The position numbers and the translations under genes were made by a program. Shown here piece after piece: positions 3,293 to 61,663 of a stretch of 64,000 nt of DNA. Position 1 is the first letter of the stretch, and each line of letters opens with the position of its first letter. The notes beneath the pieces were generated by a model. It ran no database searches, was not told where the DNA came from, and saw only the letters and a program-made list of their open reading frames with translations. Origin of the DNA: a virus. The stretch lies in IMG/VR virus record IMGVR_UViG_3300021083_000196, positions 3,377-67,376 of that record. One strand, written 5' to 3'.

Positions 3293-3475
3293 CTCATTTT
3301 CCTCCGTGATTGGGTTGGTTTATGGTTTTTTCAAGTAAATTAACAGCCTGACAACCAAGACATGGGATATCCTCCTTGCCGCATTCGCACAATGCGCCCA
3401 TACCATGTTGGCGAATAAACTTTATTGCCCATTTTGAGTCTTTCATTTCAATACTTTCTTTTTTCTCATCGTCGG

Positions 3476-7159: not shown

Positions 7160-7445
7160 GGAAAACCAACCTCACTTTGAGGTTGACATGGGGGGGTCGT
7201 CATTCTTTTCCCCATTAATTCAATGAAGTTAACCAACCTAACCAACCTTTATTAGATAAATAAAGTATAATGAATATATTATATATAGGATAGGATATAT
7301 GTACGCGCGCGCGAGGGTGCCAATATTCTCTTAGGGGTCACAACTTTTTTCGTTTTAGGTTGGCTGGGTTGGTTAACTATTTGTTAACAATAATAAATAT
7401 AACGTCAACACCCCCCTTTTGGGGTTGGTTGGAGGTTGACAATAA
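7160..7445. repeat. non-coding repeat-rich region, putative replication origin or packaging site
   Basis: 22-bp imperfect inverted repeat (7228-7248 / 7357-7378), multiple CCAACC/GGTTGG, two GAGGTTGACA, AT-rich core; lies between the divergent VapE and terS genes. Confidence 0.55.
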
Positions 7446-7528: not shown

Positions 7529-7948
7529 ATGGAAGAAGAACCACATAAGGTAGGCCAAAGCGTTCCAGCCGAGATTGACTACAGCAATCCTCGTTCCTAT
7601 GGGGCAGGGCGCAAGGCAGGGACCCCTAATAGAACGAGTGCCGATGCTCGGGCAGCCATCTCCCTCTACGTTGAAAGCAACATGTGGAGGCTACAGGAAT
7701 GGCTGGATATGATTGCTCACGGATACGAGATTACGGAAACGGATGCCGAGGGCAATACTGTAAAGAAGCGCATCACCCCGAACCCCGCGAAAGCCTACGA
7801 GCTATTCATGTCCGTCATCGAATACCATGTCCCGAAGCTCACCCGCTCCGAGTCCAAGGTGACGATCAACAACAACGAAGACTACACGCTGAAAGCCACA
7901 ACTGCTGAGGATGCGGCTCGGGAATACAACGAACTTATAAACGGATAA
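7529..7948 (+). CDS. terS: terminase small subunit (putative)
   Basis: GRKAGTPN motif and EYHVPKLTRSE; upstream of terL. Confidence 0.7.
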   Translation: MEEEPHKVGQSVPAEIDYSNPRSYGAGRKAGTPNRTSADARAAISLYVESNMWRLQEWLDMIAHGYEITETDAEGNTVKKRITPNPAKAYELFMSVIEYHVPKLTRSESKVTINNNEDYTLKATTAEDAAREYNELING

Positions 7949-7951
7949 TCT

Positions 7952-8509
7952 ATGAATTCTGATAAAAGGAAAAAACAGAAAAAAGAATATCGAGAAAAGA
8001 ACAAGGACAAATGCAAACTTGCTATCAAAAAATGGCATGAAAAAAACAAAGAGAAATTCAAGGAATATCAGAGCCAATGGCGAAAAGAGAATGTGGGACA
8101 TATAAAAGAAAAATCACACTCTGATTACATAAAAAATAAAGATAGAATAATAGAGCGCCATAAGAAAAATGAATTGAACAACAAAGAGAAATACGCCGCA
8201 CTACGGGCTGAATGGGCAAAAAGAAACCGGGATAAGGTTAGAGTTACTCGCAATAATAGAAAAAAATCTATTGGAAAATTCGGAACAAGCGATATTAAGA
8301 GATTGAAAACATCTCAAAATGATAAATGCGCTGCTTGTTTATGCTGTATAAAAGAATCTTACCATATCGATCATATTATTCCGCTTTCGAAAGGCGGGAG
8401 TAACTGGCCTGACAATATTCAATTACTTTGCCCACTATGTAATCGCAGAAAGGCTGCAAAAATGCCAGAAGTTTGGGCAGCGGAAATTCGAAATGATTTG
8501 GAATCCTGA
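7952..8509 (+). CDS. HNH homing endonuclease
   Basis: CAAC...YHIDHIIPLSKGGSNWPDNIQLLCPLCNRRK; AT-rich. Confidence 0.9.
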   Translation: MNSDKRKKQKKEYREKNKDKCKLAIKKWHEKNKEKFKEYQSQWRKENVGHIKEKSHSDYIKNKDRIIERHKKNELNNKEKYAALRAEWAKRNRDKVRVTRNNRKKSIGKFGTSDIKRLKTSQNDKCAACLCCIKESYHIDHIIPLSKGGSNWPDNIQLLCPLCNRRKAAKMPEVWAAEIRNDLES

Positions 8510-10097
8510 TTATTTTGAAATATATAAGCTTAGGGTAAAGCTAATAAACATTGCTAGAGACCCAATAAAAGCCGCAAAACTCAAGGAATATTATCGACAT
8601 AATCCTGTGGAATTTATAAACACATGGGTGACCACTTATGATCCCCGCAATGCCCTGATGTCATATATGCCGTTCGCGCTGTTCCAGAAACAGGTCGATT
8701 TCATCGATTTCCTGCAGAGCTGCCTGAACGACAAGCAGGCCGGTCTTGTGGAGAAGTCGCGGGATGTCGGCGCGAGCTGGCTGTGTTGTGCCTTCGCGGT
8801 CTGGATGCTGCTGTTCCGTCCGGGCACTTCAGTTGGCTTCGGTTCACGGGTTGTGGATGACGTGGATAAGATCGGCAAACCGGACTCGCTGTTCCAGAAG
8901 ATGCGGATCATCCTGAAGAACTTGCCGCCGTTCCTGCTACCGGCGAAGAAGATCGATGACGGCTACATGAAGATCATCAACCCGTCGAACAACTCCGTGA
9001 TCACCGGTGGATCCGGCGACAACATCGGGCGCGGTGGCCGTTCCACAATTTTCTTCAAAGACGAATCGGCGCACTACGAACATCCCGAACTTATCGAGGC
9101 CGCGCTGTCCGCGAATACCGATGTCCAGATCGATATCAGCTCGGTGAACGGGACCAATAACGTTTTCTATAACAGGCGCATGGCCGGTATAGTCTGGTCC
9201 CGCGATGCAGAGATACCATTGGGGAAAACCCGCGTATTCATTTTCGACTGGCGCGACAACCCGCTCAAAACTCAGGCTTGGTATGACGAGAAGCGCAAGA
9301 AGTGGGAAGACGACGGCCTGCTCCACATCTTCGCACAGGAAGTTGACCGCGACTACGCCTCATCGGTCGCCGGTGTGATCATCCCCAACGCGTGGGTCAA
9401 GGCGGCCATTGATGCCCACGTCAAGCTGAAGATCAAGGAGGACGGTATCCGCATGGCCGGTCTTGACGTCGCCGACGACAGCATCGATCGCGACAAGAAC
9501 GCAATCTCAGTTCGTTTCGGTATTGTTCTAAAACATTGCAGCTCATGGGGCGGTGTCGATACCGGCGTCACTGCCCGCAATGCGCTGCTGGTCTGCAAAG
9601 AACATGGCGTCACCCTGATGAACTACGACTGCATCGGCGTCGGGGCCGGTGTGAAGGGCGAAACGAATCGCCTCATCGAAGAAGCCAAAGCCGCAGGCAC
9701 TCCACTCACCATCGATATCGAGCCGATAAACGTCGGCCTGCCGCCGGACGGTCCCGAACAACGCCTGATCCCAGGCGATCACCAATCACCGAAGAACGAA
9801 GACTTCTTCGAGAACCTCAAGGCGCAGGCATGGTGGGCATTGCGGACCCGCTTCGAGAAGACGTACAAAACGATCACGCAAGATATTATATTCCCGCACG
9901 AAGACCTGATCAGCATCGACTCGACGATCCCGACGCTTCACGAACTCACCCTTGAGTTATCGCAACCGACGCGCAAGGCCAGCGGTAAAGGTAAACTTAT
10001 GGTTGATAAAAAACCACAGAGCGGAAAGTCCCCGAACTTAGCCGACTCGGTCATGCTCTGTTATATCCAAAAAGTGAGCCGTGGTTGGTTCTCTTAA
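8493..10097 (+). CDS. terL: terminase large subunit
   Basis: EKSRDVGASW (Walker A), GRGGR...FKDESA (Walker B), GLDVAD nuclease motif, KSPNLADS. Confidence 0.93.
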   Translation: MIWNPDYFEIYKLRVKLINIARDPIKAAKLKEYYRHNPVEFINTWVTTYDPRNALMSYMPFALFQKQVDFIDFLQSCLNDKQAGLVEKSRDVGASWLCCAFAVWMLLFRPGTSVGFGSRVVDDVDKIGKPDSLFQKMRIILKNLPPFLLPAKKIDDGYMKIINPSNNSVITGGSGDNIGRGGRSTIFFKDESAHYEHPELIEAALSANTDVQIDISSVNGTNNVFYNRRMAGIVWSRDAEIPLGKTRVFIFDWRDNPLKTQAWYDEKRKKWEDDGLLHIFAQEVDRDYASSVAGVIIPNAWVKAAIDAHVKLKIKEDGIRMAGLDVADDSIDRDKNAISVRFGIVLKHCSSWGGVDTGVTARNALLVCKEHGVTLMNYDCIGVGAGVKGETNRLIEEAKAAGTPLTIDIEPINVGLPPDGPEQRLIPGDHQSPKNEDFFENLKAQAWWALRTRFEKTYKTITQDIIFPHEDLISIDSTIPTLHELTLELSQPTRKASGKGKLMVDKKPQSGKSPNLADSVMLCYIQKVSRGWFS

Positions 10098-40627: not shown

Positions 40628-41052
40628 TGCCTCGTGGAATTAATCTGAACAACCCGATGAATCTGGAACGTAATTCGATCTCATGGCAGGGCGCATCGAC
40701 GCTACAAGATGATCCGCGATTTGTGAGATTCGAAACACCAGAAATGGGTGTTCGCGCGGGTATGAAAGTCCTCTTGACCTATCAGAACAAAGACGATCTC
40801 CAGAACATCTCGGCGATCATCACTAAATATGCACCACCCGCTGAAAACGATACTGCCGCATATATCAGCGATGTTAGCGCCCATTGCGGTGTCTCCCCCA
40901 CGGACTTCTTTGATGTCGAGGTGCCCGATAACATGATTCGTTTGGCGCAGGCGATCATAATTCATGAGCAAGGGCATTGCCCAGACGACAGCACTCCATT
41001 TTGGTATGAAAATGATGTATATGAATCTGCGGCCAAAGATGCATTAGGATAA
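40627..41052 (+). CDS. putative endolysin/lysozyme-like protein
   Basis: RG...NNP.N, F.TPE.G.RA, I..YAPP.ENDT.AY, I..HE.G. Confidence 0.7.
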   Translation: MPRGINLNNPMNLERNSISWQGASTLQDDPRFVRFETPEMGVRAGMKVLLTYQNKDDLQNISAIITKYAPPAENDTAAYISDVSAHCGVSPTDFFDVEVPDNMIRLAQAIIIHEQGHCPDDSTPFWYENDVYESAAKDALG

Positions 41053-41514
41053 GATATTGAGCTTGGAGAAATCTCCAAAATATTTTACAGCGGCTTTATT
41101 ATATGCGATAGCAGCTTCGACTTCAGAATCAAAATATCCAAGATGATTTTGTTTGATTCGTGCGTGCCACTTATTCCCTCTTTTACAAACCCCTTTATAC
41201 CTACTTGATGGATTTATTAATGTGGGCTTATTTTTATTCATCATGTTTTGCGATTTAGTAGCAAGTCGAAGATTGTACTTCTGATTATTAAGGCGATTTC
41301 CATCCTTGTGGTCGACTGACTTTCTTTTCATTATTTCGCAATGCATGAAAATGGTTTTTTTCTTATAAGATTTTTTAGTAGCGGTTTTTATAGGTAAGGT
41401 TTCACTTCGGATGGCATATCCATGAGAAATTTGCCATTTCCATTGCATAAGGAATTTGTAATCATCCTCATCAACCTGAACAAATTTTCCACCGGTTATT
41501 GTGATTATCTTCAT
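41044..41514 (-). CDS. HNH-AP2 homing endonuclease
   Basis: VDH.DGN.LNN...NLR; S.YKGV...W.A.I...LG.F..E.EAA.AYN. Confidence 0.9.
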   Translation of the reverse strand: MKIITITGGKFVQVDEDDYKFLMQWKWQISHGYAIRSETLPIKTATKKSYKKKTIFMHCEIMKRKSVDHKDGNRLNNQKYNLRLATKSQNMMNKNKPTLINPSSRYKGVCKRGNKWHARIKQNHLGYFDSEVEAAIAYNKAAVKYFGDFSKLNILS

Positions 41515-41564
41515 TTTTTTAACCTATAATTAACGTAAATAAATATTACCCGACAAAGCAATCC

Positions 41565-41593
41565 TTGAAAACATCTAAAATATAATATATGGT
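41565..41593 (+). promoter_or_regulatory. sigma70-like promoter for the tRNA locus
   Basis: TTGAAA-17nt-TATGGT; predicted +1 near 41600, the first tRNA base. Confidence 0.5.
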
Positions 41594-41599
41594 GATTCT

Positions 41600-41676
41600 A
41601 GCAGGATAGAGGAGCGTTCGTCCTCATCGGCCTCATAAGTCGAAGATCGGTGGTTAGAATCCATCTCCTGCAACCA
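41600..41676 (+). tRNA. tRNA-Met(CAT), initiator-like
   Basis: Cloverleaf TCGGC-CT CAT AA-GTCGA; unpaired 1:72; CCA; T-loop TTAGAAT. Confidence 0.85.
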
Positions 41677-41701
41677 AATTCTAAGATGGCCAACTCAGTA
41701 T

Positions 41702-41777
41702 GAGGCTGTCGACAAGAGGTAAAGTCAGCAGATTTTCATTCTGCGATTCGTGGGTTCAAATCCCATCAGCCTCACCA
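41702..41777 (+). tRNA. tRNA-Glu(TTC)
   Basis: GAGGCTG/CAGCCTC, GCAGA-TT TTC AT-TCTGC, CCA. Confidence 0.92.
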
Positions 41778-41793
41778 CTGGAGAAAGAACGAG

Positions 41794-41847
41794 ATGTTAC
41801 GAGAGACAAACAAGATTGTGGCGAAAGCGATTAAACCCATCAAATAG
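41794..41847 (+). CDS. attenuator leader peptide 1 (MLRETNKIVAKAIKPIK)
   Basis: GGAG SD at 41780; 10 of the last 11 codons are K/I/V/A, matching the next four tRNAs. Confidence 0.75.
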   Translation: MLRETNKIVAKAIKPIK

Positions 41848-41900
41848 GGCTGGTCAAATTCGTCTTGAATTATAACCCGCCCTCAACAGGCGGGTTTTTT
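41846..41900 (+). terminator. antiterminator/intrinsic terminator 1
   Basis: AACCCGCC-ctcaaca-GGCGGGTT plus T-run; upstream AGGGCtGGT can pair with ACCcGCCCT. Confidence 0.85.
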
Positions 41901-41923
41901 ATTACGTGGAGGAAACAGATTAT

Positions 41924-41997
41924 TGACGATTGGCCGAGGGGTTAGGCATACGCTTGATAAGCGTACTACAGTGGTTCAAGTCCACTATCGTCAACCA
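41924..41997 (+). tRNA. tRNA-Ile(GAT)
   Basis: TACGC-TT GAT AA-GCGTA; CCA. Confidence 0.92.
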
Positions 41998-42003
41998 AAA
42001 TAA

Positions 42004-42076
42004 TGGTGCGGAGTCGGATGGTTAGACAGCAGATTTTTAATCTGTACCAAAGTGGGTTCAATTCCCACCGCACCAA
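42004..42076 (+). tRNA. tRNA-Lys(TTT)
   Basis: TGGTGCG/CGCACCA, GCAGA-TT TTT AA-TCTGT; no encoded CCA. Confidence 0.88.
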
Positions 42077-42077
42077 C

Positions 42078-42156
42078 GGGGAATGGGACTGCTTAGGGTG
42101 GTCGCCTCACTTGCAATGAGGATCGCAGATCGGGGCAGAACCGATATTCTCCACCA
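42078..42156 (+). tRNA. tRNA-Ala(TGC)
   Basis: G3:U70 pair; CCTCA-CT TGC AA-TGAGG; T-loop GGCAGAA; CCA. Confidence 0.9.
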
Positions 42157-42162
42157 AATTAT

Positions 42163-42237
42163 AGGGGGTTAGCTCAGAGGCAGAGCGTCCGGCTTACATC
42201 CGGAAGGACGAGATTTCGAAATTCTCACTCTCTACCA
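42163..42237 (+). tRNA. tRNA-Val(TAC)
   Basis: TCCGG-CT TAC AT-CCGGA; CCA. Confidence 0.92.
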
Positions 42238-42238
42238 T

Positions 42239-42268
42239 TTGACATCAGGACCCGAATCGTGTCATCGT
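42239..42268 (+). promoter_or_regulatory. promoter for leader 2 (predicted leaderless mRNA)
   Basis: TTGACA-18nt-(TGn)CATCGT-6nt-ATG; no SD. Confidence 0.5.
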
Positions 42269-42274
42269 TATAAG

Positions 42275-42352
42275 ATGAAAACGATATCAACATCGATGTA
42301 TTCCAGTGATCGCACCTTCAATAGAGGTTGCGGCGCGGGGCATTTGGTGTAA
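42275..42352 (+). CDS. attenuator leader peptide 2 (MKTISTSMYSSDRTFNRGCGAGHLV)
   Basis: Codons 3-20 correspond to the downstream 12-tRNA array. Confidence 0.8.
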   Translation: MKTISTSMYSSDRTFNRGCGAGHLV

Positions 42353-42414
42353 GTTTTCTTAGATTTTTATACATCAAAACCCCACCCAAAGTGATTTAGG
42401 TGGGGTTTTTGTTT
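42337..42414 (+). terminator. antiterminator/intrinsic terminator 2
   Basis: AAAACCCCACC...GGTGGGGTTTTT; leader end GGGGcaTTTGGTGTA pairs with TACATCAAAaCCCC. Confidence 0.85.
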
Positions 42415-42451
42415 ATACGGTTATTGAACATTGTTGAGATATGATGATTTT

Positions 42452-42528
42452 TTCCGAGTAGCACAGACGGTAGTTGCGCCTGACTGTTAATCAGGATGTC
42501 CGTGGTTCGATTCCACGCTCGGGAACCA
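42452..42528 (+). tRNA. tRNA-Asn(GTT)
   Basis: CCTGA-CT GTT AA-TCAGG; CCA. Confidence 0.92.
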
Positions 42529-42532
42529 ATTC

Positions 42533-42608
42533 GTCTCTCTGGCGTAGCTGGTGCGCGCGTCTGTCTGAAGAACAGAAGGATGCCGTTCGATTCGGCGGGG
42601 AGACACCA
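42533..42608 (+). tRNA. tRNA-Phe(GAA)
   Basis: TCTGT-CT GAA GA-ACAGA; CCA. Confidence 0.9.
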
Positions 42609-42613
42609 AATAC

Positions 42614-42688
42614 GCGCTGGAGATGTTGGCGGGTGCATGCGAGTCTTCCAAACTTGATGATGGGGTTCGACTCCCCACCGGCGCACCA
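42614..42688 (+). tRNA. tRNA-Gly(TCC)
   Basis: CGAGT-CT TCC AA-ACTTG; CCA. Confidence 0.9.
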
Positions 42689-42694
42689 AATTGA

Positions 42695-42770
42695 CGCAGC
42701 ATAGCTTAGTGGCTAAAGCTCGTTCCTCATAAGAACGCTATCATGGGTTCGAGTCCCATTGCTGCTACCA
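42695..42770 (+). tRNA. tRNA(CAT): Ile2 or Met
   Basis: CGTTC-CT CAT AA-GAACG; C1/U72 mismatch; identity not resolvable by eye. Confidence 0.85.
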
Positions 42771-42774
42771 CTTC

Positions 42775-42849
42775 GCCTCTAAAGCATTGTTAGTGATGCA
42801 GTTGCCTTGTAAGCATCAGAAGTCGGCGCAACTCCGGCATGAGGCACCA
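42775..42849 (+). tRNA. tRNA-Thr(TGT)
   Basis: CT TGT AA loop; T-loop CGCAACT; CCA. Confidence 0.85.
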
Positions 42850-42855
42850 ATTCAT

Positions 42856-42930
42856 GGACACATAGCTCAACGGTAGAGCACCGCACTGTCACTGCGGAGG
42901 TCGTGGGGTCAGCACCCATTGTGTTCGCCA
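42856..42930 (+). tRNA. tRNA-Asp(GTC)
   Basis: CCGCA-CT GTC AC-TGCGG; G73; CCA. Confidence 0.9.
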
Positions 42931-42994
42931 ATTATGTGTGGATATGAACATTTTTTATTAGGTTCATATCCACATTTGTGTTACTTTCTTTTCT

Positions 42995-43429
42995 ATGAAA
43001 AAATGCATTAAATGTGAAAAAATAAAACAGTTAGATTCCTTTTATAAAAGAAATGACAGAAAAGATCGTTATTCTTCGTCATGTATTGAGTGCCAAAGAA
43101 AATATCTAAAAGAGCACTATCACAAAAATATCAAATATTATAAGGCGAAAGCCAGAAAAAATGATATTAACGCAATAGAACAAAGATTCCATTTTTTAGT
43201 GGATTATTTAAAAAATAACCCATGTGTTGACTGTGGAGAAGGCGACATTGTAGTCCTTCAGTTTGATCACGTTCGAGGAAAGAAATTTCGCAACATTTCT
43301 ATGATGCTACACAGAAAAATGTCATGGGAAAAAATACTTTTAGAAATAAAAAAGTGTGAGGTTAGGTGTTCAAATTGCCATGTTAGAAAAACGGCAAGGC
43401 AATTTAATTGGAAAAAATTGCATGTATAG
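42995..43429 (+). CDS. HNH endonuclease inserted in tRNA array 2
   Basis: CIKC...PCVDCGE.D...LQFDHVRG...KCEVRCSNCH. Confidence 0.88.
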   Translation: MKKCIKCEKIKQLDSFYKRNDRKDRYSSSCIECQRKYLKEHYHKNIKYYKAKARKNDINAIEQRFHFLVDYLKNNPCVDCGEGDIVVLQFDHVRGKKFRNISMMLHRKMSWEKILLEIKKCEVRCSNCHVRKTARQFNWKKLHV

Positions 43430-43496
43430 CTCAATGGAGTAGAGCACCAAGCTACGAACTTGGGGGTTAAGGGTTCGAGTCCTTTTACATGCGCCA
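43420..43496 (+). tRNA. tRNA-Arg(ACG)
   Basis: CCAAG-CT ACG AA-CTTGG; CCA. Confidence 0.92.
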
Positions 43497-43501
43497 ATTT
43501 T

Positions 43502-43575
43502 CTCGTAGTGACGGAATGGTTACGTGACGGTCTGCAAAACCGTTTATGGCAGTTCGATTCTGCCCTATGAGTCCA
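43502..43575 (+). tRNA. tRNA-Cys(GCA)
   Basis: ACGGT-CT GCA AA-ACCGT; U73; CCA. Confidence 0.92.
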
Positions 43576-43576
43576 C

Positions 43577-43668
43577 GGAAAGTTTAGTGCAGCGGCCTGC
43601 ACCCCGATCTTGAAAATCGGTGATAGTCAGCGATGGCTATGGGGATCGACACCACCAGCTTTCCTCCA
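43577..43668 (+). tRNA. tRNA-Ser(TGA)
   Basis: CCGAT-CT TGA AA-ATCGG; long variable arm; CCA. Confidence 0.85.
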
Positions 43669-43675
43669 ATTCTTC

Positions 43676-43764
43676 GGTGAGTTAACTTGGCAAGTGCCAA
43701 GCACGGTTTGCTAAACCGTTGGTGCCTTTACCGGCATGTGGATCAGGACCACATCTCTCCGCCA
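43676..43764 (+). tRNA. tRNA-Ser(GCT)
   Basis: ACGGT-TT GCT AA-ACCGT; long variable arm; G73; CCA. Confidence 0.85.
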
Positions 43765-43765
43765 T

Positions 43766-43842
43766 CGGTGTCGGCACAGGTTGGATTCTGGTCTCGACTG
43801 TAAATCGACGTAAATGTGGTTCGACTCCACAGGCACCGACCA
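43766..43842 (+). tRNA. tRNA-Tyr(GTA)
   Basis: TCGA-CT GTA AA-TCGA; C1:G72; short variable loop; CCA. Confidence 0.85.
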
Positions 43843-43849
43843 ATTTTAT

Positions 43850-43929
43850 AGGCATGTATCTCCTTTGTCTTCTAAACAAGTGAAAGAGTAATTGGACTCA
43901 TGTAGGTTCGAATCCTATCATGCCTGCCA
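43850..43929 (+). tRNA. atypical tRNA-Arg(TCT) lacking a canonical D-arm
   Basis: AGGCATG/CATGCCT-G-CCA, TTTGT-CT TCT AA-ACAAG, GTAGG-TTCGAAT-CCTAT; only 7 nt between acceptor and anticodon stems. Confidence 0.75.
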
Positions 43930-44037
43930 AAATATCCATTGCATTCTCTGGAGAACATCCGTTAGAGTCTTTTCTTGGGCATGTGCTCATGAGGAAACAA
44001 AATGTCAATCAGAAAAATCATAAGAGGAATCATCATA

Positions 44038-44253
44038 ATGTCAGATATCGCAGACAATGTTATCGCACTCCAAGGCGCAGTAAACTCGCTTACAACAGAA
44101 ATCGCTTCACTCACGGCAGCCGTTGGTGCTCTCCAAGCTCCTGCAGCTCCTACCGTAGACCTTTCTCCCGTGCTTGCGGCTATTGCTGACATCAAGGCTC
44201 AACTCGTTCCGACACCTGCTCCGGCAGCACCGGCGACGACTACAGGCTCATAA
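44038..44253 (+). CDS. small Ala-rich coiled-coil protein
   Basis: MSDIADNV after GAGGA; followed by a terminator. Confidence 0.7.
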   Translation: MSDIADNVIALQGAVNSLTTEIASLTAAVGALQAPAAPTVDLSPVLAAIADIKAQLVPTPAPAAPATTTGS

Positions 44254-44280
44254 CTTTATAAAAGCTATGATATATTAAAA

Positions 44281-44312
44281 AAAGCTGGGGGATAACACCC
44301 TCAGCTTTTTTT
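44281..44312 (+). terminator. intrinsic terminator
   Basis: AAAGCTGGGGG-ataacac-CCTCAGCTTT plus T-run. Confidence 0.8.
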
Positions 44313-44313
44313 G

Positions 44314-44342
44314 TTGCTTTAAAAACAGAATCATCATATCGT
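44314..44342 (+). promoter_or_regulatory. promoter for leader 3 (predicted leaderless mRNA)
   Basis: TTGCTT-17nt-TATCGT-6nt-ATG; no SD. Confidence 0.55.
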
Positions 44343-44348
44343 AGAACA

Positions 44349-44423
44349 ATGAAAACGAATTTGTTACAGCTCTGGCATCAACCGCTCCCACAACTGGGAG
44401 TTTTTGTGCTTGGGCGAATGTAG
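44349..44423 (+). CDS. attenuator leader peptide 3 (MKTNLLQLWHQPLPQLGVFVLGRM)
   Basis: Codons 5-16 are exclusively L/Q/W/H/P, matching the next six tRNAs. Confidence 0.8.
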   Translation: MKTNLLQLWHQPLPQLGVFVLGRM

Positions 44424-44475
44424 GCAATAACTCATAAAGTTATTAACCAACCCGCCCTAACAAGGCGGGTTTTTT
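44412..44475 (+). terminator. antiterminator/intrinsic terminator 3
   Basis: AACCCGCC-ctaacaa-GGCGGGTT plus T-run; GGGCG in the leader pairs with CGCCC around the AATAACT/AGTTATT stem. Confidence 0.85.
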
Positions 44476-44496
44476 GTTATTGAAGGAGAAATTAAA

Positions 44497-44579
44497 GGGG
44501 ATGTGATGAAATTGGTAGACTTCCCTGACTTAAAATCAGGGGCTTCGGCGTGTGAGTTCAAGTCTCACCATCCCCACCA
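44497..44579 (+). tRNA. tRNA-Leu(TAA)
   Basis: CCTGA-CT TAA AA-TCAGG; CCA. Confidence 0.92.
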
Positions 44580-44581
44580 AT

Positions 44582-44659
44582 GCCGGTGTAGCAGAATGGC
44601 AAATGCGGCGGTCTTAGGAACCGCGTCATCTGGAGGTTCGAGTCCTCTCACCGGCACCA
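44582..44659 (+). tRNA. tRNA-Leu(TAG)
   Basis: GCGGT-CT TAG GA-ACCGC; short variable region; CCA. Confidence 0.9.
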
Positions 44660-44665
44660 AATTAA

Positions 44666-44742
44666 CGGCATGTAGCGAAGTCTGGTATCGCGCTCCCCTT
44701 GGGAGGGAGAGATCGAAGGTTCAAATCCTTCTATGCCGACCA
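44666..44742 (+). tRNA. tRNA-Pro(TGG)
   Basis: CTCCC-CT TGG GA-GGGAG; C1:G72; CCA. Confidence 0.92.
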
Positions 44743-44746
44743 TTTT

Positions 44747-44820
44747 ACAGGGATCGTCTAGTGGCAAGACAAGGGCCTCCAAAACCTTTGACCGGTGTTC
44801 GATTCATCGTCCCTGTGCCA
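44747..44820 (+). tRNA. tRNA-Trp(CCA)
   Basis: CT CCA AA loop; G73; CCA. Confidence 0.88.
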
Positions 44821-44826
44821 GTCTGT

Positions 44827-44901
44827 GGTGTGTATAGCTCAAGGGTCGAGCGCGGGATTGTGGCTCCTGATATACGGGTTCGAGTCCCGTTACGCACCCC
44901 A
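44827..44901 (+). tRNA. tRNA-His(GTG)
   Basis: CGGGA-TT GTG GC-TCCTG; encoded G-1 and C73. Confidence 0.92.
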
Positions 44902-44904
44902 TAT

Positions 44905-44980
44905 TCCGAGGTCGTCTAAATGGCAAGGACATGTGATTTTGGCTCATATAATGTTGGTTCGAACCCAGCCCTCGGAACCA
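44905..44980 (+). tRNA. tRNA-Gln(TTG)
   Basis: TGTGA-TT TTG GC-TCATA; U1:A72; CCA. Confidence 0.9.
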
Positions 44981-45057
44981 CCCTTTACTTTGATAGAAAA
45001 ATGCTGTTAGATTTCTGAGCCGCAATGTCGCGGCTTCTCTGAAAGGAAATCTAAAAT

Positions 45058-45471
45058 ATGTCTAACCAACTTTTCGAAAAAGCTTCACCACTCTTTGCTG
45101 CTCCGGTTCCTGCGCTGCCGACCCTGATGCAAGCGCAAGTCGATATGCTCACCAATCTCGTTGCAAAGTTCTCTGGCCTTGACCTGACCAAAGCGACCAC
45201 CACCGCGCTGGCTATCATCATCGGCGGCCAACAACCGAACACCGCGATTGCTGCAGCATCTGTTCTCGTCAAAGCACAGGCTAAAGAACAGGGCGTAGAG
45301 ATCGAAGATCAAGATGCTAACGTCATTGCTCAGGCGGTGACCAACGGCGTTCTGGCATCGATCCAGCTCTCGATTACGGCACAGGTGGCAGCCAGTCCAG
45401 CCGCTAATCAAGGAGGCGTTGAAGCAGGTGCGACAGCTCCCGCCGCATCAGCAGAAGCAGGCACTAACTAA
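45058..45471 (+). CDS. Ala-rich hypothetical protein
   Basis: 137 aa; GAAAGGA SD. Confidence 0.7.
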   Translation: MSNQLFEKASPLFAAPVPALPTLMQAQVDMLTNLVAKFSGLDLTKATTTALAIIIGGQQPNTAIAAASVLVKAQAKEQGVEIEDQDANVIAQAVTNGVLASIQLSITAQVAASPAANQGGVEAGATAPAASAEAGTN

Positions 45472-45513
45472 TATCCAAAATCAGGTCCTTAATATTAAAA
45501 AGGCCTGACTGAT

Positions 45514-45544
45514 ACGGCAGCTCCTTAGATGGGGCTGCCGTTTT
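45514..45544 (+). terminator. intrinsic terminator
   Basis: CGGCAGCTCC-ttagat-GGGGCTGCCG-TTTT. Confidence 0.75.
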
Positions 45545-45619
45545 CATTGCGGGTTCCCAGATTTTGCAATACAATTAAGATATTCTCTAATTGTAGAGGG
45601 CAACTGAAAGGAAACTAAA

Positions 45620-45874
45620 ATGAGCACATTTATCGCAACTGCAGAAAAGGTGGCCTCCGAGGCCGAACACTTCACCGTTGAACTCGCTGAAAAGGTCGAG
45701 GCTGTGGCCAAGAAGGGTTACGAAGAAGTTGTGGCCCTTATCGAAGGTCACAAGGCGGCTGTAGCGGGAAACGCGCCTGCTGCTCCTGTGGCTGCTGCTG
45801 CGGCCTCTGGAGCTGTCGAGGCTGCTCCTGCTGCCGCCCCGACTGCTGAAGCTGCTACAACAACGACTGCTTAA
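45620..45874 (+). CDS. Ala/Glu-rich hypothetical protein
   Basis: 84 aa; GAAAGGA SD. Confidence 0.7.
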   Translation: MSTFIATAEKVASEAEHFTVELAEKVEAVAKKGYEEVVALIEGHKAAVAGNAPAAPVAAAAASGAVEAAPAAAPTAEAATTTTA

Positions 45875-45877
45875 AAG

Positions 45878-46066
45878 ATGACGGCGCGGGAACGACTATT
45901 CTTCATGATCTGGGGTCTAGTAATGTTCCCGCTCCTCATTCTATGGGTGGCCGTCGATTTCAAAATGGGTGCCGAGGTTGTTATCGCCCTGTTGACTTAC
46001 ATGGGCGGCGTGAAATTTCTTTTAACAAAAGATGCGGATTGCCAAGGAGCACACGATGGGAATTAA
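45878..46066 (+). CDS. two-TM membrane protein (holin candidate)
   Basis: Two hydrophobic helices; precedes the spanin pair. Confidence 0.5.
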   Translation: MTARERLFFMIWGLVMFPLLILWVAVDFKMGAEVVIALLTYMGGVKFLLTKDADCQGAHDGN

Positions 46067-57402: not shown

Positions 57403-57861
57403 TTAATACACTTCTCCGCGTTGTATCCGAGATATAGTTGATTGAGAAACCCCATATTCTTCTGCTAAGTCGTACTGATTCTCATGCCTTGATCGTATTA
57501 TTTTTACTTCCTTGGCAGTAAATTTTGCCCTTGGATTGTTCACGCCATTCCGGTCATATCCCCTGCCTTTAGAGAACATATCCTTGTTATTATCAGCTTG
57601 AGTACCTAAGAAAAGATGGTTCGGATTCACACAGGGAGGATTGTCACATTTATGTAATACGTGCATATCTTTTGGAATTTCCCCCACATAAATTTCCCAA
57701 GAAATTCTATGTGCCTTTTTATGTTTTCCATCTATAGACATTTTGCCGTAGCTGTTTTTACCTTTAGCCCCTTTCCAGAGCCAACAGCTACTAGCTACGG
57801 CAAAAATTACCTTTTCTTCAAATCTTTTTTTAAAGATTTTCTTCAAGCTTTTCGACTTCAT
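57403..57861 (-). CDS. HNH endonuclease with C-terminal HTH
   Basis: CWLWKG...AHR.SW...VLHKCDNPPCVNPNHL.LGT..DN. Confidence 0.9.
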   Translation of the reverse strand: MKSKSLKKIFKKRFEEKVIFAVASSCWLWKGAKGKNSYGKMSIDGKHKKAHRISWEIYVGEIPKDMHVLHKCDNPPCVNPNHLFLGTQADNNKDMFSKGRGYDRNGVNNPRAKFTAKEVKIIRSRHENQYDLAEEYGVSQSTISRIQRGEVY

Positions 57862-59146
57862 AGATGAATCTTATTACGTTCTCGGAAAACCCATCAATAT
57901 GTTTCCATCGGCCATAGCCAACACCGTTCTTATTAGATGCCACATTAATCATGTAGGCATTCTTAAAATCAGGATCAGACACGCTGTCATGGCTCTGCTC
58001 ATCCGTGATGACGATGATACGATCAGCCTTGACGTTGGCGTTTAGCCATCTGAGAGCCTCTCCAAGATGAGTGCCGCCATGGGGTTGAGAGTTCTGGATG
58101 GCATCTACTCCAGCCATGCCCAAGCGCGGCGGGCATTCCTTGAGTGCCGTGGAGAAGCTGAACACGCGGCGGTCACCGTGAATGATAGAACCAAGTGCCG
58201 CAGCAGCATCAAGACGAGTCATGTCAGACTTCGCTGACAGCTTCGCGTCCATGCTTCCAGACACATCGACGAGCACAACAGTAGTCCCTGACAATTTCGG
58301 CAGCCCTTCGATGGACTTCAAAAGCATCTGGTCAAGCTCTGGTTCATATTTCTTGACGATTCGTGCGGCTGCCACATAACGGAACGGCAGAACTCTGTCG
58401 GCACCCTTACCGGCAAGAATAGCCTCGCGGATCAGAGAATCATCAACACCTGATTCGGACATGTTACGCAGGTTGCGAAGCAATGCCAGATATCCGAGGT
58501 TGCCTTCCTTCAGAAGACGGGTGAAGGTTTCCTTCTTATCCGCGCCTGCCGACAGGGCGACTTCCCAAGTATCAGGAACCTCTAGTTGCTTCGACACCAG
58601 CCGCTTCCACATATCGGATTGATCGGTATCCTTTGGCTTGCCGTGTGCTAAGAAAAGAACATCACGAAGCTTGATCGTGTTGTCTCGGTTATACTTAGCG
58701 ATCGAATACTCGTTGAACTTCGTGAATGCACGTGCAAGACCCTTTTTCAACTGAGCGGACAGCGGCTTCTTGCCATCTTTCCAGTAGATGGTCAGCAACT
58801 CGGCAAGCTCATCCGGACGCTGGATGACCTCGTAAATCGTATCCGACACGAGACGTGATCCGGAACCGGTCTTGCAAAGAACGGACAGAAGCAGCAGTGG
58901 GATATGGCGCAGCTTTCCAGCGGTGCGGACTTCTATAGCCAATGCGGCCAATCTTTGTGCGGAAACCTGCGTTGCCAATTCTTCTACGCGCTTGGCAATC
59001 TCTTGACCTTCTTCGTAGGCATCTTTTTCCCACAACATGCAGGACATCACCGAACGGCGCAGAGCCTGTTCAGGATTGATATGTTTTGCCGGTGCACCTT
59101 CGTGGGTGAACTCGGTCGTTTTAGTTCTGGTATTTAGTCTAGCCAT
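57830..59146 (-). CDS. rsr: Ro60/Rsr (TROVE plus vWA) RNA-binding protein
   Basis: THEGA, RPDEL, QLKKGLA.AF..F.EY..AKY, P.TWE..LS, ALLRNLRN, LPFR, DVSGSM, ITDEQ. Confidence 0.93.
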   Translation of the reverse strand: MARLNTRTKTTEFTHEGAPAKHINPEQALRRSVMSCMLWEKDAYEEGQEIAKRVEELATQVSAQRLAALAIEVRTAGKLRHIPLLLLSVLCKTGSGSRLVSDTIYEVIQRPDELAELLTIYWKDGKKPLSAQLKKGLARAFTKFNEYSIAKYNRDNTIKLRDVLFLAHGKPKDTDQSDMWKRLVSKQLEVPDTWEVALSAGADKKETFTRLLKEGNLGYLALLRNLRNMSESGVDDSLIREAILAGKGADRVLPFRYVAAARIVKKYEPELDQMLLKSIEGLPKLSGTTVVLVDVSGSMDAKLSAKSDMTRLDAAAALGSIIHGDRRVFSFSTALKECPPRLGMAGVDAIQNSQPHGGTHLGEALRWLNANVKADRIIVITDEQSHDSVSDPDFKNAYMINVASNKNGVGYGRWKHIDGFSENVIRFIYEVEKLEENL

Positions 59147-59164
59147 TTTAGTCTCCTTAAAAAA

Positions 59165-59264
59165 TAGAGGAACATGCGATAAAAGAAATGCCGATTTGAA
59201 CGGCTATGCAGCTTTTTTAAAGCTGTGTTCAACCAATGAAGTATCTCTTATCTATCGCCATCTA
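59165..59264 (-). ncRNA. Y RNA-like 4 (Ro-binding stem plus T-arm hairpin)
   Basis: TAGA-TGGCG...TACTTCA...GCATGTTCC-TCTA; internal GCCG-TTCAAAT-CGGC. Confidence 0.75.
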
Positions 59265-59274
59265 CAAAAGTACA

Positions 59275-59407
59275 GTGAGGGAACAAGCACCGAAAGTAAC
59301 GTATGCGCTCTACCACTAAGCTACAACAACCATAAATGGGTTGCTGACCGGATTCGAACCGATGCCTCATCCTCCAAATGGAAGTAACTCTCGATTACAC
59401 CACTCAC
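59275..59407 (-). ncRNA. yrlA: YrlA-type Y RNA 3
   Basis: GTGAG-TGGTG...TACTTC...GCTTGTTCC-CTCAC enclosing a permuted tRNA (T-arm, closed acceptor stem, D-arm). Confidence 0.85.
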
Positions 59408-59417
59408 CTTATCAAGC

Positions 59418-59550
59418 AACAGGGGAATAAGCGGAAAGACGTTTTTTACGTGCTCTACCAATTGAGCTACCCACCCCGAAGGGCAGGGATGGACTCGAAC
59501 CACCAACCCCGTCATTACAAATGAAGAACTTCTTTCCTACGCCACCTGTT
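59418..59550 (-). ncRNA. yrlA: YrlA-type Y RNA 2
   Basis: AACAGG-TGGCG...TTCTTCA...GCTTATTCC-CCTGTT; GGTTCGAGTCC then TAGCTCAATTGGTAGAGC. Confidence 0.85.
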
Positions 59551-59561
59551 TTATCTATACA

Positions 59562-59628
59562 CCGAAGGAATAAGCGAACGGTCTTTTGTTTTCAAAGGCA
59601 TGAAGTAAGACCGTTCAACGCCATCCGG
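59562..59628 (-). ncRNA. minimal Y RNA 1 (Ro-binding module only)
   Basis: CCGGA-TGGCG-TT-GAACGGTCT-TACTTCA...AGACCGTTC-GCTTATTCC-TTCGG, 67 nt. Confidence 0.75.
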
Positions 59629-59644
59629 CTAATCGAATAAACCC

Positions 59645-59673
59645 ACACTATAAACATTTTATAACATCGTCAA
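59645..59673 (-). promoter_or_regulatory. sigma70-like promoter of the Y RNA-Ro60 operon
   Basis: TTGACG-17nt-TAGTGT on the minus strand. Confidence 0.55.
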
Positions 59674-59730
59674 GCAGTATGTTGCATTATTTTAAAAATT
59701 GTTTATAACGATTAATGAAAGGATTTCGGA

Positions 59731-59901
59731 ATGAAAGAAGAAAAAGCCGTTCAGGCCTATAACTTATCCACAAAAAATCATGAGTGGTTAAAAAAGCAGG
59801 CAGAATCAGTGGGCCGTTCTGTCAGCCAGTTCTTGGATATGCTCATAACGTCTAATAGGGAGAAGGATAAAAAAAATGTCAGAGTACAGAGAGATCGCTA
59901 A
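59731..59901 (+). CDS. ribbon-helix-helix-like small regulator
   Basis: YNLS...HEWLKKQA...GRSVSQFLD.LI; AAAGGA SD. Confidence 0.55.
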   Translation: MKEEKAVQAYNLSTKNHEWLKKQAESVGRSVSQFLDMLITSNREKDKKNVRVQRDR

Positions 59902-60238
59902 AAAGCACGGAATACCTGAATCAGTGGCCGATGCCGTTGAAAAAGATGATGCTGCGGCTGGCGTAGGTCACAACAGCGGAGATACACAGGATATTGGTGG
60001 TGTTTCCGGAGCACGCCTGAAGGCATTCATTGAGCGCATCGAGCGGCTGGAAGAAGAAAAAGCTGCAATCGCCGAAGATGTCCGTGATGTCTACGGAGAA
60101 GCCAAGGCAACCGGCTTCGACCCCAAGATTATTCGTAAACTGGTTTCCCTCCGGAAACAGAATTTGGAAAAACGGCGCGAAGAACAGGAATTGCTTGAGC
60201 TTTATGCCGCCGCGATTCAGATGGAATTAGCACTATAA
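59876..60238 (+). CDS. gapR: GapR (DUF2312) nucleoid-associated protein
   Basis: RLKAFIERIERLEEEK..I..D..DVY.EAK..GFD.KI.R....LRK. Confidence 0.9.
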   Translation: MSEYREIAKKHGIPESVADAVEKDDAAAGVGHNSGDTQDIGGVSGARLKAFIERIERLEEEKAAIAEDVRDVYGEAKATGFDPKIIRKLVSLRKQNLEKRREEQELLELYAAAIQMELAL

Positions 60239-60287
60239 TCTGATATAATGACATCGAGGTTTTGGTTCACCTCCATGTTGTTGACTT

Positions 60288-60323
60288 GGCCGCCGGTCTT
60301 TTGCGAGACCGGCGGCTCTTTTA
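60288..60323. terminator. terminator between convergent genes
   Basis: GCCGCCGGTCT-tttgcg-AGACCGGCGGC hairpin. Confidence 0.7.
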
Positions 60324-60881
60324 TAGCTGGAGTGTCGGCGTGCCCTTCGACATGAAGGCCGCATGTTTCTCGATAAGCTCTTTGTGGAGGCTGCTACGCG
60401 GCGTCTCCAGTAGCGGGATAAGGTATCCCACCTCTTTCAAGAACACCTTGGAGAAGTCTGGATCACAGGCGACGATACTGTGCATGTTGTCGATGATGTC
60501 AGCACACTTTATGACTTTCGCCGCGTTGCTAGCCGTCTTCAACCGCTCACGCGTGATCTCTTTCCGCTTCGCACGGTTGCCCGCTGACAGTGGTGGATCA
60601 GTCAGTTCAGCGACGAATCGTCCGACATCTGATCCAAACCATCCATAAACCTCATCGATAAGAATCGGAGTATCTTCGACGACATCGTGAAGCAGGGCCG
60701 CGATGATCATTTTTTCCCGCATGTCTTCAAGTTCTTTTTCGAAGACCGCGCAGGACACCATCTTGGCCACCGACAGGAGATGGACCAGATAAGGCTCGCC
60801 AGAGTATTTCCTGAATTGTGGACGGTGCTCTTTTTCCACGAACTGGACGGCGTGGATGATATCGTGACCTGCGAACATCAT
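60321..60881 (-). CDS. HD-domain hydrolase, RelA/SpoT-Mesh1 type
   Basis: H..Q.RK.SGEPY..H, AALLHDVVEDT, V.ELTD, IK.AD..DN. Confidence 0.85.
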   Translation of the reverse strand: MMFAGHDIIHAVQFVEKEHRPQFRKYSGEPYLVHLLSVAKMVSCAVFEKELEDMREKMIIAALLHDVVEDTPILIDEVYGWFGSDVGRFVAELTDPPLSAGNRAKRKEITRERLKTASNAAKVIKCADIIDNMHSIVACDPDFSKVFLKEVGYLIPLLETPRSSLHKELIEKHAAFMSKGTPTLQL

Positions 60882-61663
60882 TGTGGGTCCGCTATGATTT
60901 TCCGGTACAGAGTATTAATCCTGTCCTCGGAATATGGCGTCTCGTCGATGTTCTCATCAATCCATTTAAACGTATGCGTATCGAGCATTTCCTTGATCCA
61001 TGCGGTGAAGAATTCATGGAGTTCCTGTGGCGCGTCGGTCTGCTCGATAGCCTTGACCTTCAAGTCGATGAGCTGATTGATTTTATAGATGAACTCATCG
61101 CCGATTATCTTTTCTGCGGCCACCGTTTTTTGCAGCAGGGTACTGAATGGCACCGGCGGTAGAGTTTTGTTCTGATGGATGTAAAGTACACACAACATCG
61201 GACGGATGATGTAGAACCATTTCTTCATCGTCGGTTCACCACTGCCAACGATATGCTGCTTGTAAGTAGATTGTGATATCCCGCGATAGTGATGGGCAGC
61301 GCGGCGGAGACAGAAGTGATCGGTTGTGTAATTTTTCAACAGCGCATGGGCCACATCTTTGTAATAGATCACTGGAGACAATAGATGCTCGTAAAGGGCG
61401 GCGTTACTTTGTGATGCCAACTTCATCACCTTCTTGATGTCCCACCCCGAGTAATCGTGCAGTCCCTCCATAAATCCGAAGTGTTCGACGTTCTCGAATA
61501 CGCTCGTGTATTTCGAACGATCCTTGTACATGAACATGAAGCGGACATCATAATCCGAATCGGGACTCGCAAATCCCCATGCCCGCGAACCGGCCTCTAC
61601 AATGGACAGAAATTCGAGGTCTGGAAATTGTTCTTCGAGACGTGCTTTGAAATCGTAAGTCAT
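60878..61663 (-). CDS. RlaP-like Pol-beta superfamily nucleotidyltransferase
   Basis: E.GSRAWGFASPDSDYDVRF, GWD..K...L...SN....E.L.SP..Y, KK.FY..RP. Confidence 0.85.
   Translation of the reverse strand: MTYDFKARLEEQFPDLEFLSIVEAGSRAWGFASPDSDYDVRFMFMYKDRSKYTSVFENVEHFGFMEGLHDYSGWDIKKVMKLASQSNAALYEHLLSPVIYYKDVAHALLKNYTTDHFCLRRAAHHYRGISQSTYKQHIVGSGEPTMKKWFYIIRPMLCVLYIHQNKTLPPVPFSTLLQKTVAAEKIIGDEFIYKINQLIDLKVKAIEQTDAPQELHEFFTAWIKEMLDTHTFKWIDENIDETPYSEDRINTLYRKIIADPQ

Follow-up and report, generated by a model that had tools for sequence, protein, structure and literature searches.

A 64 kb stretch of the 67,376-base genome of an uncultured peat phage (IMG/VR record IMGVR_UViG_3300021083_000196, positions 3,377 to 67,376; hereafter the window) carries three blocks of transfer RNA (tRNA) genes that are each preceded by a short open reading frame (ORF) and an intrinsic transcription terminator. 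We consider it likely that each of these units is a leader-peptide transcription attenuator of the trp/his type that controls its tRNA block, functioning as an OR-gate with negative feedback. In other words, expression of each tRNA block is probably restricted to conditions under which the codons read by its tRNAs are decoded slowly. This proposal is carried by the anatomy of the units, the match between leader codons and downstream tRNAs, the alternative RNA pairings observed in silico, the conservation of the amino-acid sets, and the occurrence of the same design in a second, independent phage lineage.

All three units lie on the + strand and share the layout proposed in a preliminary description of this DNA, wherein a short leader ORF is followed by a terminator and then by a block of four, 12, or six tRNA genes (Table 1). 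The leader peptide segments quoted in that description are exact when checked against the translation, and its placement of an anti-terminator strand at or over the stop codon agrees with the folds of all three units. Structurally, this strand (segment 2) in unit 1 has two possible partners, which are the sensing codons of the leader (segment 1) or the 5′ arm of the terminator, and these are used in alternative folds. The genes located downstream of the terminators are exclusively tRNAs plus one inserted HNH homing-endonuclease gene, with no biosynthesis enzymes among them. A general terminator scan missed the terminator of unit 2, which has a long loop that escapes such a scan. In units 2 and 3, the −10-like hexamer ends 6 nucleotides upstream of the ATG, as read from the spacing in both the window phage and its close relative (L001, described below), and the sequence suggests that these two units are transcribed as leaderless mRNAs. 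A hairpin followed by a run of T nucleotides is also present inside leader 3 (44384-44401), where it spans sensing codons 12-17 and could pause RNA polymerase and thereby couple it to the ribosome.

The preliminary description further held that the leader codons enumerate the downstream tRNAs, and this was borne out by two analyses. We scanned all same-length windows in six frames of the 67,376-base genome, which amounted to 134,706, 134,646, and 134,682 windows for blocks 1, 2, and 3, respectively. For every block, the sole window that is both fully cognate and covers every tRNA is the core of the block's own leader, where window lengths were set after the leaders had been seen and tRNAs with U34 were allowed all four codons of their box. 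A cross-match of amino acids between leaders and blocks gave a corresponding picture. Specifically, the codons that agree with a leader's own block number 10 of 16 for leader 1, 18 of 24 for leader 2, and 13 of 23 for leader 3, compared with one to three, one to four, and one to seven for the other blocks, respectively. Nowhere in the genome do the five amino acids of the leader 3 core form a longer run. Leader 2 includes at least one codon for each of the 12 tRNAs downstream, including both Arg and both Ser isoacceptors, and it offers one ATA codon and one internal ATG codon to the single tRNA with a CAT anticodon. In the segment of leader 1 that had originally been quoted, the lone non-cognate codon is the Pro codon at position 15.

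Folding of the leader RNAs is consistent with a switch that is controlled by ribosome position. We modelled the co-transcriptional state by folding each RNA as it would exist before the 3′ arm of the terminator has been made, with a 30-nucleotide mask representing the ribosome. With any of the sensing codons masked, the 5′ arm of the terminator is paired with segment 2 at a probability (P) of 0.62-0.80. This pairing falls to P values of 0.11-0.49 once the ribosomal A site has advanced as far as codon 15 in unit 1 or codon 18 in units 2 and 3. The matched codons therefore end where masking begins, and the Pro codon of leader 1 is located at this boundary between sensing and masking. Thus, the masked folds reproduce the behaviour that had been predicted for these leaders, in that a ribosome at the stop codon would mask the anti-terminator, whereas a ribosome stalled on a sensing codon would leave it free.

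In folds of the leaders alone, the sensing codons pair with the strand located at or just before the stop codon in all three cases. Because of this segment 1:2 pairing, the units have the form of full trp-type attenuators with four segments, and the models indicate that the leaders should terminate transcription when they are not translated. To express the strength of the switch, we defined its amplitude as the probability that the 5′ arm is paired with the ribosome in mid-leader minus that with the ribosome at the stop codon, and compared each leader with 100 mononucleotide shuffles. The amplitudes of leaders 1, 2, and 3 are 0.49, 0.55, and 0.39 in the window, values matched by one, two, and five of the 100 shuffles, respectively. 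The corresponding leaders of L001 yielded 0.53, 0.42, and 0.66, matched by three, four, and none. Anti-terminator energies range from about −14 to −20 kcal/mol, comparable to those of the terminators (−13.3, −18.1, and −13.3 kcal/mol). The modelled units combine the features by which an attenuator is recognized, including a short ORF with a start codon, a cluster of cognate codons, mutually exclusive 1:2/3:4 and 2:3 pairings, and an intrinsic terminator.

Presumably, transcription begins just upstream of each leader, and in units 2 and 3 probably at the ATG itself to yield leaderless mRNAs. A ribosome would then translate the leader as RNA polymerase advances. If all sensing codons are decoded rapidly, the ribosome would reach the last codons or the stop codon and cover segment 2, and after its release segment 1 would pair again with segment 2. 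In either state, whether segment 2 is covered or engaged in the 1:2 pairing, the terminator hairpin could form and the tRNA block would remain untranscribed. If even one sensing codon is read slowly, the ribosome would stall on segment 1, segment 2 would pair with the 5′ arm of the terminator, and polymerase would read through into the block. Because the sensing codons are served by the tRNAs of the same block, such a device would be a multiplexed OR-gate with negative feedback. If any one tRNA of the block became scarce, for whatever reason, the output of the whole block would increase, and the newly made tRNAs would then shut the block off. From the sequence and the folds we infer that the leaders are translated, that two of them have leaderless starts, and that the outcome is decided by kinetic competition, as well as the direction and size of the response. 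Such an attenuator would be sensitive to slow decoding of whatever origin, and it would also exert plain negative feedback on the output of phage tRNAs. Cleavage of host tRNAs, loss of host tRNAs driven by the phage, and codon demand would each work as a trigger.

A close relative of the window phage is represented by L001, a 70 kb IMG/VR contig with 60% identity in a flanking protein and the same tRNA order. The DNA of unit 1 is 92% identical between the two phages, and the mean column identity for units 2 and 3 is 82%. Leaders 2 and 3 of the relative retain the length, start, and amino-acid set of their counterparts but arrange the sensing codons differently; the Cys codon of leader 2, for instance, is codon 19 in the window and codon 5 in L001. 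Within the L001 locus, windows that are fully cognate and cover every tRNA were again confined to the leaders, with two overlapping windows of 40,680 for the first block, one of 40,626 for the second, and one of 40,656 for the third. The fold behaviour of the L001 leaders resembles that of the window leaders. In addition, sequence differences in the unit 2 terminator and in the spacer hairpins of both unit 2 and unit 3 have left the pairing intact. The L001 counterpart of the unit 2 promoter-like site was picked up by a promoter scan, and the promoter-like block of unit 3 is conserved. The HNH genes of L001 are located at 7690-8020 and 9270-9675, which are other places than in the window, and in both phages the leaders cover the tRNAs that flank each HNH insertion on both sides.

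Searches for further relatives of this arrangement yielded little. Both near and distant blastn searches against 50,697 phage records returned only matches to single tRNAs. Scans of IMG/VR with the flanking protein, the leader 1 stretch, a tRNA-Gly pattern, and a leader 3 pattern recovered one contig only (L001/L002), and a further match (L014) has no tRNA. A metagenome scan with protein alignment returned no matches, and scans of genome contigs gave no relevant match. A protein search found four homologues. A back-translated leader 1 pattern occurred in 11 stretches, none of which has a matching tRNA block, and these were attributed to chance.

A scanner for codon matches was also applied to eight unrelated phage tRNA loci, from DU_PP_V, Tbat2_3, RSP15, DSS3_MAL1, RB23, D482, Astolliot, and Pumpernickel. 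Caulobacter phage RB23 is the only one of these loci with a corrected p value below 0.01, and six of the eight had no such ORF detected. Vibrio phage D482 carries a suggestive annotated ORF of 31 codons just upstream of its tRNA block (L028, 963-1058), in which the 12 tRNAs that follow are cognate to 17 of 18 codons. In this A+T-rich genome, the match is not significant after correction. A window of seven codons in Astolliot (corrected p of 0.045) was taken as noise.

We found the leader region of RB23 conserved across 45 phiCbK-like phage records, and seven of these phages were examined (RB23, CcrSC, phiCbK, Rogue, Colossus, Papperlapapp, and Bajun). In all seven, a near-consensus promoter located about 7 nucleotides upstream of the ATG is followed by an ORF of 31-33 codons and a strong terminator, after which come an atypical tRNA-Tyr and the tRNA block. 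The 13 or 14 codons that precede segment 2 specify only seven amino acids. The fractions of these leader codons with a tRNA in the block are 14/14, 14/14, 10/14, 10/13, 13/14, 11/14, and 13/14 in the seven phages. The amino-acid groups differ between this lineage and that of the window phage, and they track tRNA gene order rather than biosynthetic families.

Comparative analysis of the phiCbK-like sequences provides evidence of covariation for both of the alternative structures. The RNAalifold consensus comprises the segment 1:2 pairing and the terminator, and nine of its 37 pairs are compensatory. When the segment 2:3 helix was specified instead, it was 90.8% paired, versus 34-54% when the partner columns were slid. 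Two pairs of this helix change on both sides; at one position, five phages have G-C and the other two have A-U.

A second unit occurs in phiCbK, where the annotated gene gp335 (45 codons; L022, 1204-1341) and an annotated terminator precede tRNAs for Pro, Lys, Leu, Ala, and Ser. Almost all gp335 codons specify amino acids of this block and of the corresponding block in Rogue. In Brevundimonas phage Papperlapapp, an annotated hypothetical gene (L026, 441-575) likewise is, or contains, the leader ORF of a tRNA block. The atypical tRNA-Tyr mentioned above has an enlarged D region and follows the terminator in each of the seven phages (about 6395-6500 in L021, and at the same place in L022-L027); it is annotated in Bajun only. 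The 2012 paper on phiCbK-like genomes states, in its available text, that a Tyr tRNA is absent (PMC3556154). Within that same text (Gill et al. 2012, PMC3556154), the strings 'attenuat' and 'leader' occur zero times. A region located between tRNA genes of CcrRogue (L023, 93-189) matches the Rfam skipping-rope RNA with 45.8 bits (threshold 36.7).

Several observations weigh against the attenuator proposal. Leaders 2 and 3 lack a Shine-Dalgarno sequence, and the promoter-like sites of units 2 and 3 are weak matches to the consensus that were not listed by the promoter scan. A complete codon match requires relaxed wobble, since only a U34 tRNA is available for several sensing codons with C or T in the third position; with strict wobble, the cores of leaders 1, 2, and 3 score 10/11, 14/18, and 10/12. 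The evidence for the switch consists of sequence and in silico folds. In equilibrium folds of the full leaders, the terminators of units 2 and 3 are kept at nearly all ribosome positions, and with the ribosome mask a clear switch appears in unit 1 only. The switch therefore rests on a kinetic assumption, as it does in classical attenuators. Without the mask, the observed pairing of the 5′ arm is reached by five to nine of 100 shuffles in the window, which is modestly unusual, and by 22, 58, and 88 of 100 in L001, which is not unusual. Because this test without a ribosome is weak, the switch-amplitude test was used in its place. Furthermore, the sole Cys codon of leader 2 (codon 19) and its flanking Gly codons are located where a stalled ribosome already masks segment 2, and thus the tRNAs need not all be sensed equally.

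The comparison with close relatives, which rests on L001 as the single case, also bears on a check suggested in the preliminary description, namely whether leader codons change together with tRNA content in related phages. The amino-acid sets are kept in L001 while their order is permuted. However, block 2 of L001 includes an extra tRNA-Arg(CCG) (8196-8271) and an odd tRNA (7179-7264) that have no dedicated leader codon. The latter has an oversized anticodon loop and an Rfam score of 58.4 bits, and is not named by ARAGORN. In the phiCbK-like phages, some leaders retain codons for Arg, Asn, or Phe although the block that follows has no tRNA for that amino acid. A strict loss of these codons together with the matching tRNA was ruled out by reading the whole ORF, and the tracking is partial.

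Some of these observations would be expected if the units were not regulated at all, such that the short ORFs occur by chance or are untranslated and the hairpins are ordinary terminators or processing sites between transcription units. The weak promoters, the two of three leaders without a Shine-Dalgarno sequence, and the preference for terminators in equilibrium folds are consistent with this view, as are the six of eight unrelated tRNA loci that have no such ORF and the weak seven-codon signal of Astolliot. However, each leader is the unique best match to its own block, both in the genome of the window phage and in the L001 locus, and the amino-acid sets are kept in L001 while order and DNA sequence change. 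Moreover, the sensing codons stop exactly at the onset of segment 2 masking, and an unrelated lineage has the same design with covariation in both alternative helices. For these reasons, we find the absence of regulation highly improbable. A response to amino-acid starvation, whereby the leaders sense uncharged tRNA and tune tRNA output to host nutrition, deserves equally little weight. The trp and his attenuators do not distinguish missing from uncharged tRNA, and leader-peptide attenuators in general are blind to this difference. In addition, the phage encodes a protein with an HD_4 domain, which is of the RelA/SpoT hydrolase kind. However, extra tRNA gives no relief from a shortage of amino acids, and read-through would be futile. 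The amino-acid groups also follow tRNA gene order and differ between lineages, rather than reflecting biosynthetic families, and thus starvation is unlikely to be the purpose of the switch.

A further alternative, which is the specific reading given in the preliminary description, employs the same hardware for sensing of host defences, with blocks that are normally off and are turned on when a host anticodon nuclease or similar enzyme destroys host tRNAs. According to the folds, the switch would react to the loss of any single cognate tRNA. The same phage encodes a Ro60-like TROVE protein, an RlaP nucleotidyltransferase, and an HD_4 hydrolase, which constitute a context associated with RNA damage, and the available text of two papers reports that phage tRNAs evade defences that target tRNAs (PMC10264068, PMC11555353). 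However, the sequence offers no pointer to a nuclease trigger, and a near-complete set of gated tRNAs with feedback fits general supply control at least equally well. Infection itself, through codon demand by the phage or decay of host tRNAs, would trip the same switch. Known tRNA nucleases cut few isoacceptors, whereas the three leaders jointly sense 18 amino acids. Rather than a dedicated defence sensor, which we regard as possible but rather improbable, the leaders are best viewed as attenuators that meter each tRNA block by the speed at which its codons are decoded.

The window phage encodes a large terminase, a portal protein, a protease, a major head protein, and a tape-measure protein, and its nearest large terminase among 50,697 phage records is approximately 50% identical. 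The sequencing runs listed as containing the window DNA are two peat-metagenome DNA runs, which may be its source, and no RNA run is among them. There are 24 tRNA genes on the + strand at 41600-44980, of which 19 are called by ARAGORN with default settings. Rfam adds the tRNAs for Thr (31.5 bits) and Arg(TCT) (33.6 bits), and those for Ala, Ser(GCT), and Tyr were called by our own folds and by positional homologues in L001. These last three are the least certain of the tRNA calls and are below Rfam detection at E values up to 1. Together with Arg(TCT) they are non-canonical (42078-42155 and 43670-43929), and all four have cloverleaf-like folds and are not called by ARAGORN with default settings. 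The tRNA-Ala is further backed by blastn matches to annotated phage tRNA-Ala genes and by an ARAGORN call at the same place in L001.

Table 1. Features of the tRNA region, numbered from the first nucleotide of the window.
Feature	Position	Strand	Details
Promoter-like site heading the tRNA region	41565-41593	+	9/12 consensus, 17-nucleotide spacer, ends 6 nucleotides upstream of first tRNA
tRNA-Met and tRNA-Glu, ungated	41600-41777	+	ARAGORN, Rfam; tRNA-Met with CAT anticodon, 1:72 unpaired by our own reading
Shine-Dalgarno-like GGAG	41780-41783	+	10 nucleotides upstream of leader 1
Leader ORF 1	41794-41847	+	17 codons plus stop; from ORF list, translation
Leader 1 sensing codons 7-14	41812-41835	+	Lys, Ile, Val, Ala exclusively
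Unit 1 anti-terminator strand (segment 2)	41845-41873	+	begins at stop codon; from folds
Intrinsic terminator 1	41874-41896 (stem)	+	8 base pairs (6 G-C), T run to 41903; −13.3 kcal/mol
tRNA block 1	41924-42237	+	Ile(GAT), Lys(TTT), Ala(TGC, 42078-42155), Val(TAC)
Unit 2 promoter-like site	42239-42268	+	−35-like 42239-42244, 6/6; −10-like 42263-42268, 3/6, preceded by TG
Leader ORF 2	42275-42352	+	25 codons; sensing codons 3-20 (42281-42334)
Unit 2 anti-terminator strand and spacer hairpin	42337-42375	+	strand over last codons and stop; pairs with 42370-42383
Intrinsic terminator 2	42376-42409	+	G+C-rich outer stem of 11 base pairs, small inner stem, T run to 42415; −18.1 kcal/mol
tRNA block 2	42452-43929	+	Asn, Phe, Gly, CAT-tRNA, Thr, Asp, HNH gene, Arg(ACG), Cys, Ser(TGA), Ser(GCT), Tyr, Arg(TCT)
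HNH homing-endonuclease gene	42995-43429	+	inside tRNA block 2, between Asp and Arg(ACG)
83-codon gene without assigned function, and strong terminator	44002-44313	+	terminator at 44276-44313
Unit 3 promoter-like site	44314-44342	+	7/12 consensus, 17-nucleotide spacer
Leader ORF 3	44349-44423	+	24 codons; sensing codons 5-16 (44361-44396), Leu, Gln, Trp, His, Pro exclusively
Unit 3 anti-terminator strand and spacer hairpin	44412-44448	+	G+C-rich pentamer 44412-44416, 5 nucleotides upstream of stop
Intrinsic terminator 3	44449-44471 (stem)	+	element to 44477; −13.3 kcal/mol
tRNA block 3	44497-44980	+	Leu(TAA), Leu(TAG), Pro, Trp, His, Gln

The region begins with two tRNAs that are not part of a unit, and the sequence between their promoter-like site and the tRNA-Met and tRNA-Glu genes contains neither a leader nor a terminator. 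HNH homing-endonuclease genes are found in or beside the tRNA blocks, at 42995-43429 and at 41044-41514. Between tRNA-Asp and the first of these genes, an A+T-rich hairpin of 13 base pairs is followed by a T-rich stretch (42936-42975), and this might cause partial termination of block 2 before its second half. The 83-codon gene located downstream of block 2 has no Pfam matches, and together with its terminator it is an insulator that separates block 2 from unit 3. Elsewhere in the window, an island resembling RNA-repair loci is present on the − strand (57830-61663) and encodes the Ro60-like protein (TROVE and vWA domains), the RlaP nucleotidyltransferase, and the HD_4 hydrolase. ARAGORN makes two tRNA-like calls within this island (59182-59552), which may be Y-RNA modules.

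The units have clear similarities to the attenuators of amino-acid operons, which likewise include a short ORF, clustered sensing codons, four RNA segments with mutually exclusive 1:2, 2:3, and 3:4 pairings, and a terminator located before the regulated genes. A stalled ribosome leads to read-through in these operons and would do so in the window units, and in both cases one leader can cover more than one amino acid. Enterobacterial examples of multivalent leaders are those of thr, which senses Thr and Ile, and ilvGMEDA, which senses Ile, Leu, and Val; leader peptides also control trp, his, leu, and phe. Unlike these systems, the targets of the window units are the tRNAs that decode the sensing codons, and the regulatory loop would close on the tRNA pool. 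Rather than runs of a single codon, one window leader has mostly one to three codons each for up to 11 amino acids and 12 tRNAs. The window units also differ in being borne by a phage and in having two of three leaders that look leaderless. Among the Rfam leader families, the best match is Trp_leader (RF00513) at 44367-44478, with 22.4 bits versus a threshold of 41 and an E value of 0.35, and no other family matched at E values up to 1.

T-box riboswitches resemble the window units in that a switch between terminator and anti-terminator reports the charging state of a specific tRNA. A T-box binds its tRNA directly and without translation, recognizes one tRNA each, and controls genes for synthetases or amino-acid metabolism. 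In contrast, the window leaders would work through translation and with many tRNAs per leader, and the region 41000-46000 has no Rfam match to the T-box at E values up to 1. The nearest printed case that we found, in the text available to us, is the long tRNA operon of Anabaena sp. PCC 7120, which is induced by stress and located on a megaplasmid (PMC8421152). This operon is under the control of the transcriptional repressor protein TrcR (PMC10272220). As proposed for the window units, it is an accessory tRNA array that is off until translation is impaired, according to the portions of these papers that are available. Unlike the window units, it is bacterial and controlled by a repressor, and the terms 'attenuat', 'leader peptide', and 'terminator' occur zero times in the available portion of PMC8421152.

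The preliminary description knew of no published phage example, and our literature search also turned up no description of one. Specifically, a targeted search of 8.1 million papers and 0.36 million preprints found no account of tRNA genes that are controlled by a leader peptide or by attenuation. Sets of tRNAs encoded by phages are thought to replace host tRNAs lost during infection (PMC10264068, PMC11555353). In their available text, these two papers concern the purpose of the tRNAs and not the control of their transcription, and no mention of leader-peptide control was found there (PMC10264068, PMC11555353).

The role of phage tRNA genes has been debated for decades, with proposals that the tRNAs serve codon supply, make up for host tRNAs that have been degraded, or allow escape from anticodon nucleases, and the question of how these genes are regulated has hardly been raised so far. 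If the attenuators work as proposed, phages meter their tRNA supply directly by decoding speed, and a single leader is an OR-gate over up to a dozen tRNAs. Attenuation would also gain a self-referential use, wherein the sensor reads the product of the genes that it regulates. The match between leader and block offers an annotation rule for tiny genes that are missed or labelled hypothetical, such as the 45-codon gp335 of phiCbK, and the units might be useful as small components of synthetic circuits designed to monitor individual tRNAs. Because phiCbK and its host are both laboratory organisms, the idea is directly testable in Caulobacter crescentus. The element is of high interest in our view, being general, absent from annotations, and amenable to tests in a cultured system. 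More tentatively, and with considerable doubt, these units might represent a widespread and undescribed phage strategy in which every tRNA block has a multiplexed codon sensor of its own. The same design is present without annotation in the cultured phage phiCbK. Phages that employ this strategy would hold a near-complete set of tRNAs in reserve, release a block within seconds once the host attacks a tRNA species or one runs out, and shut it off again by feedback.

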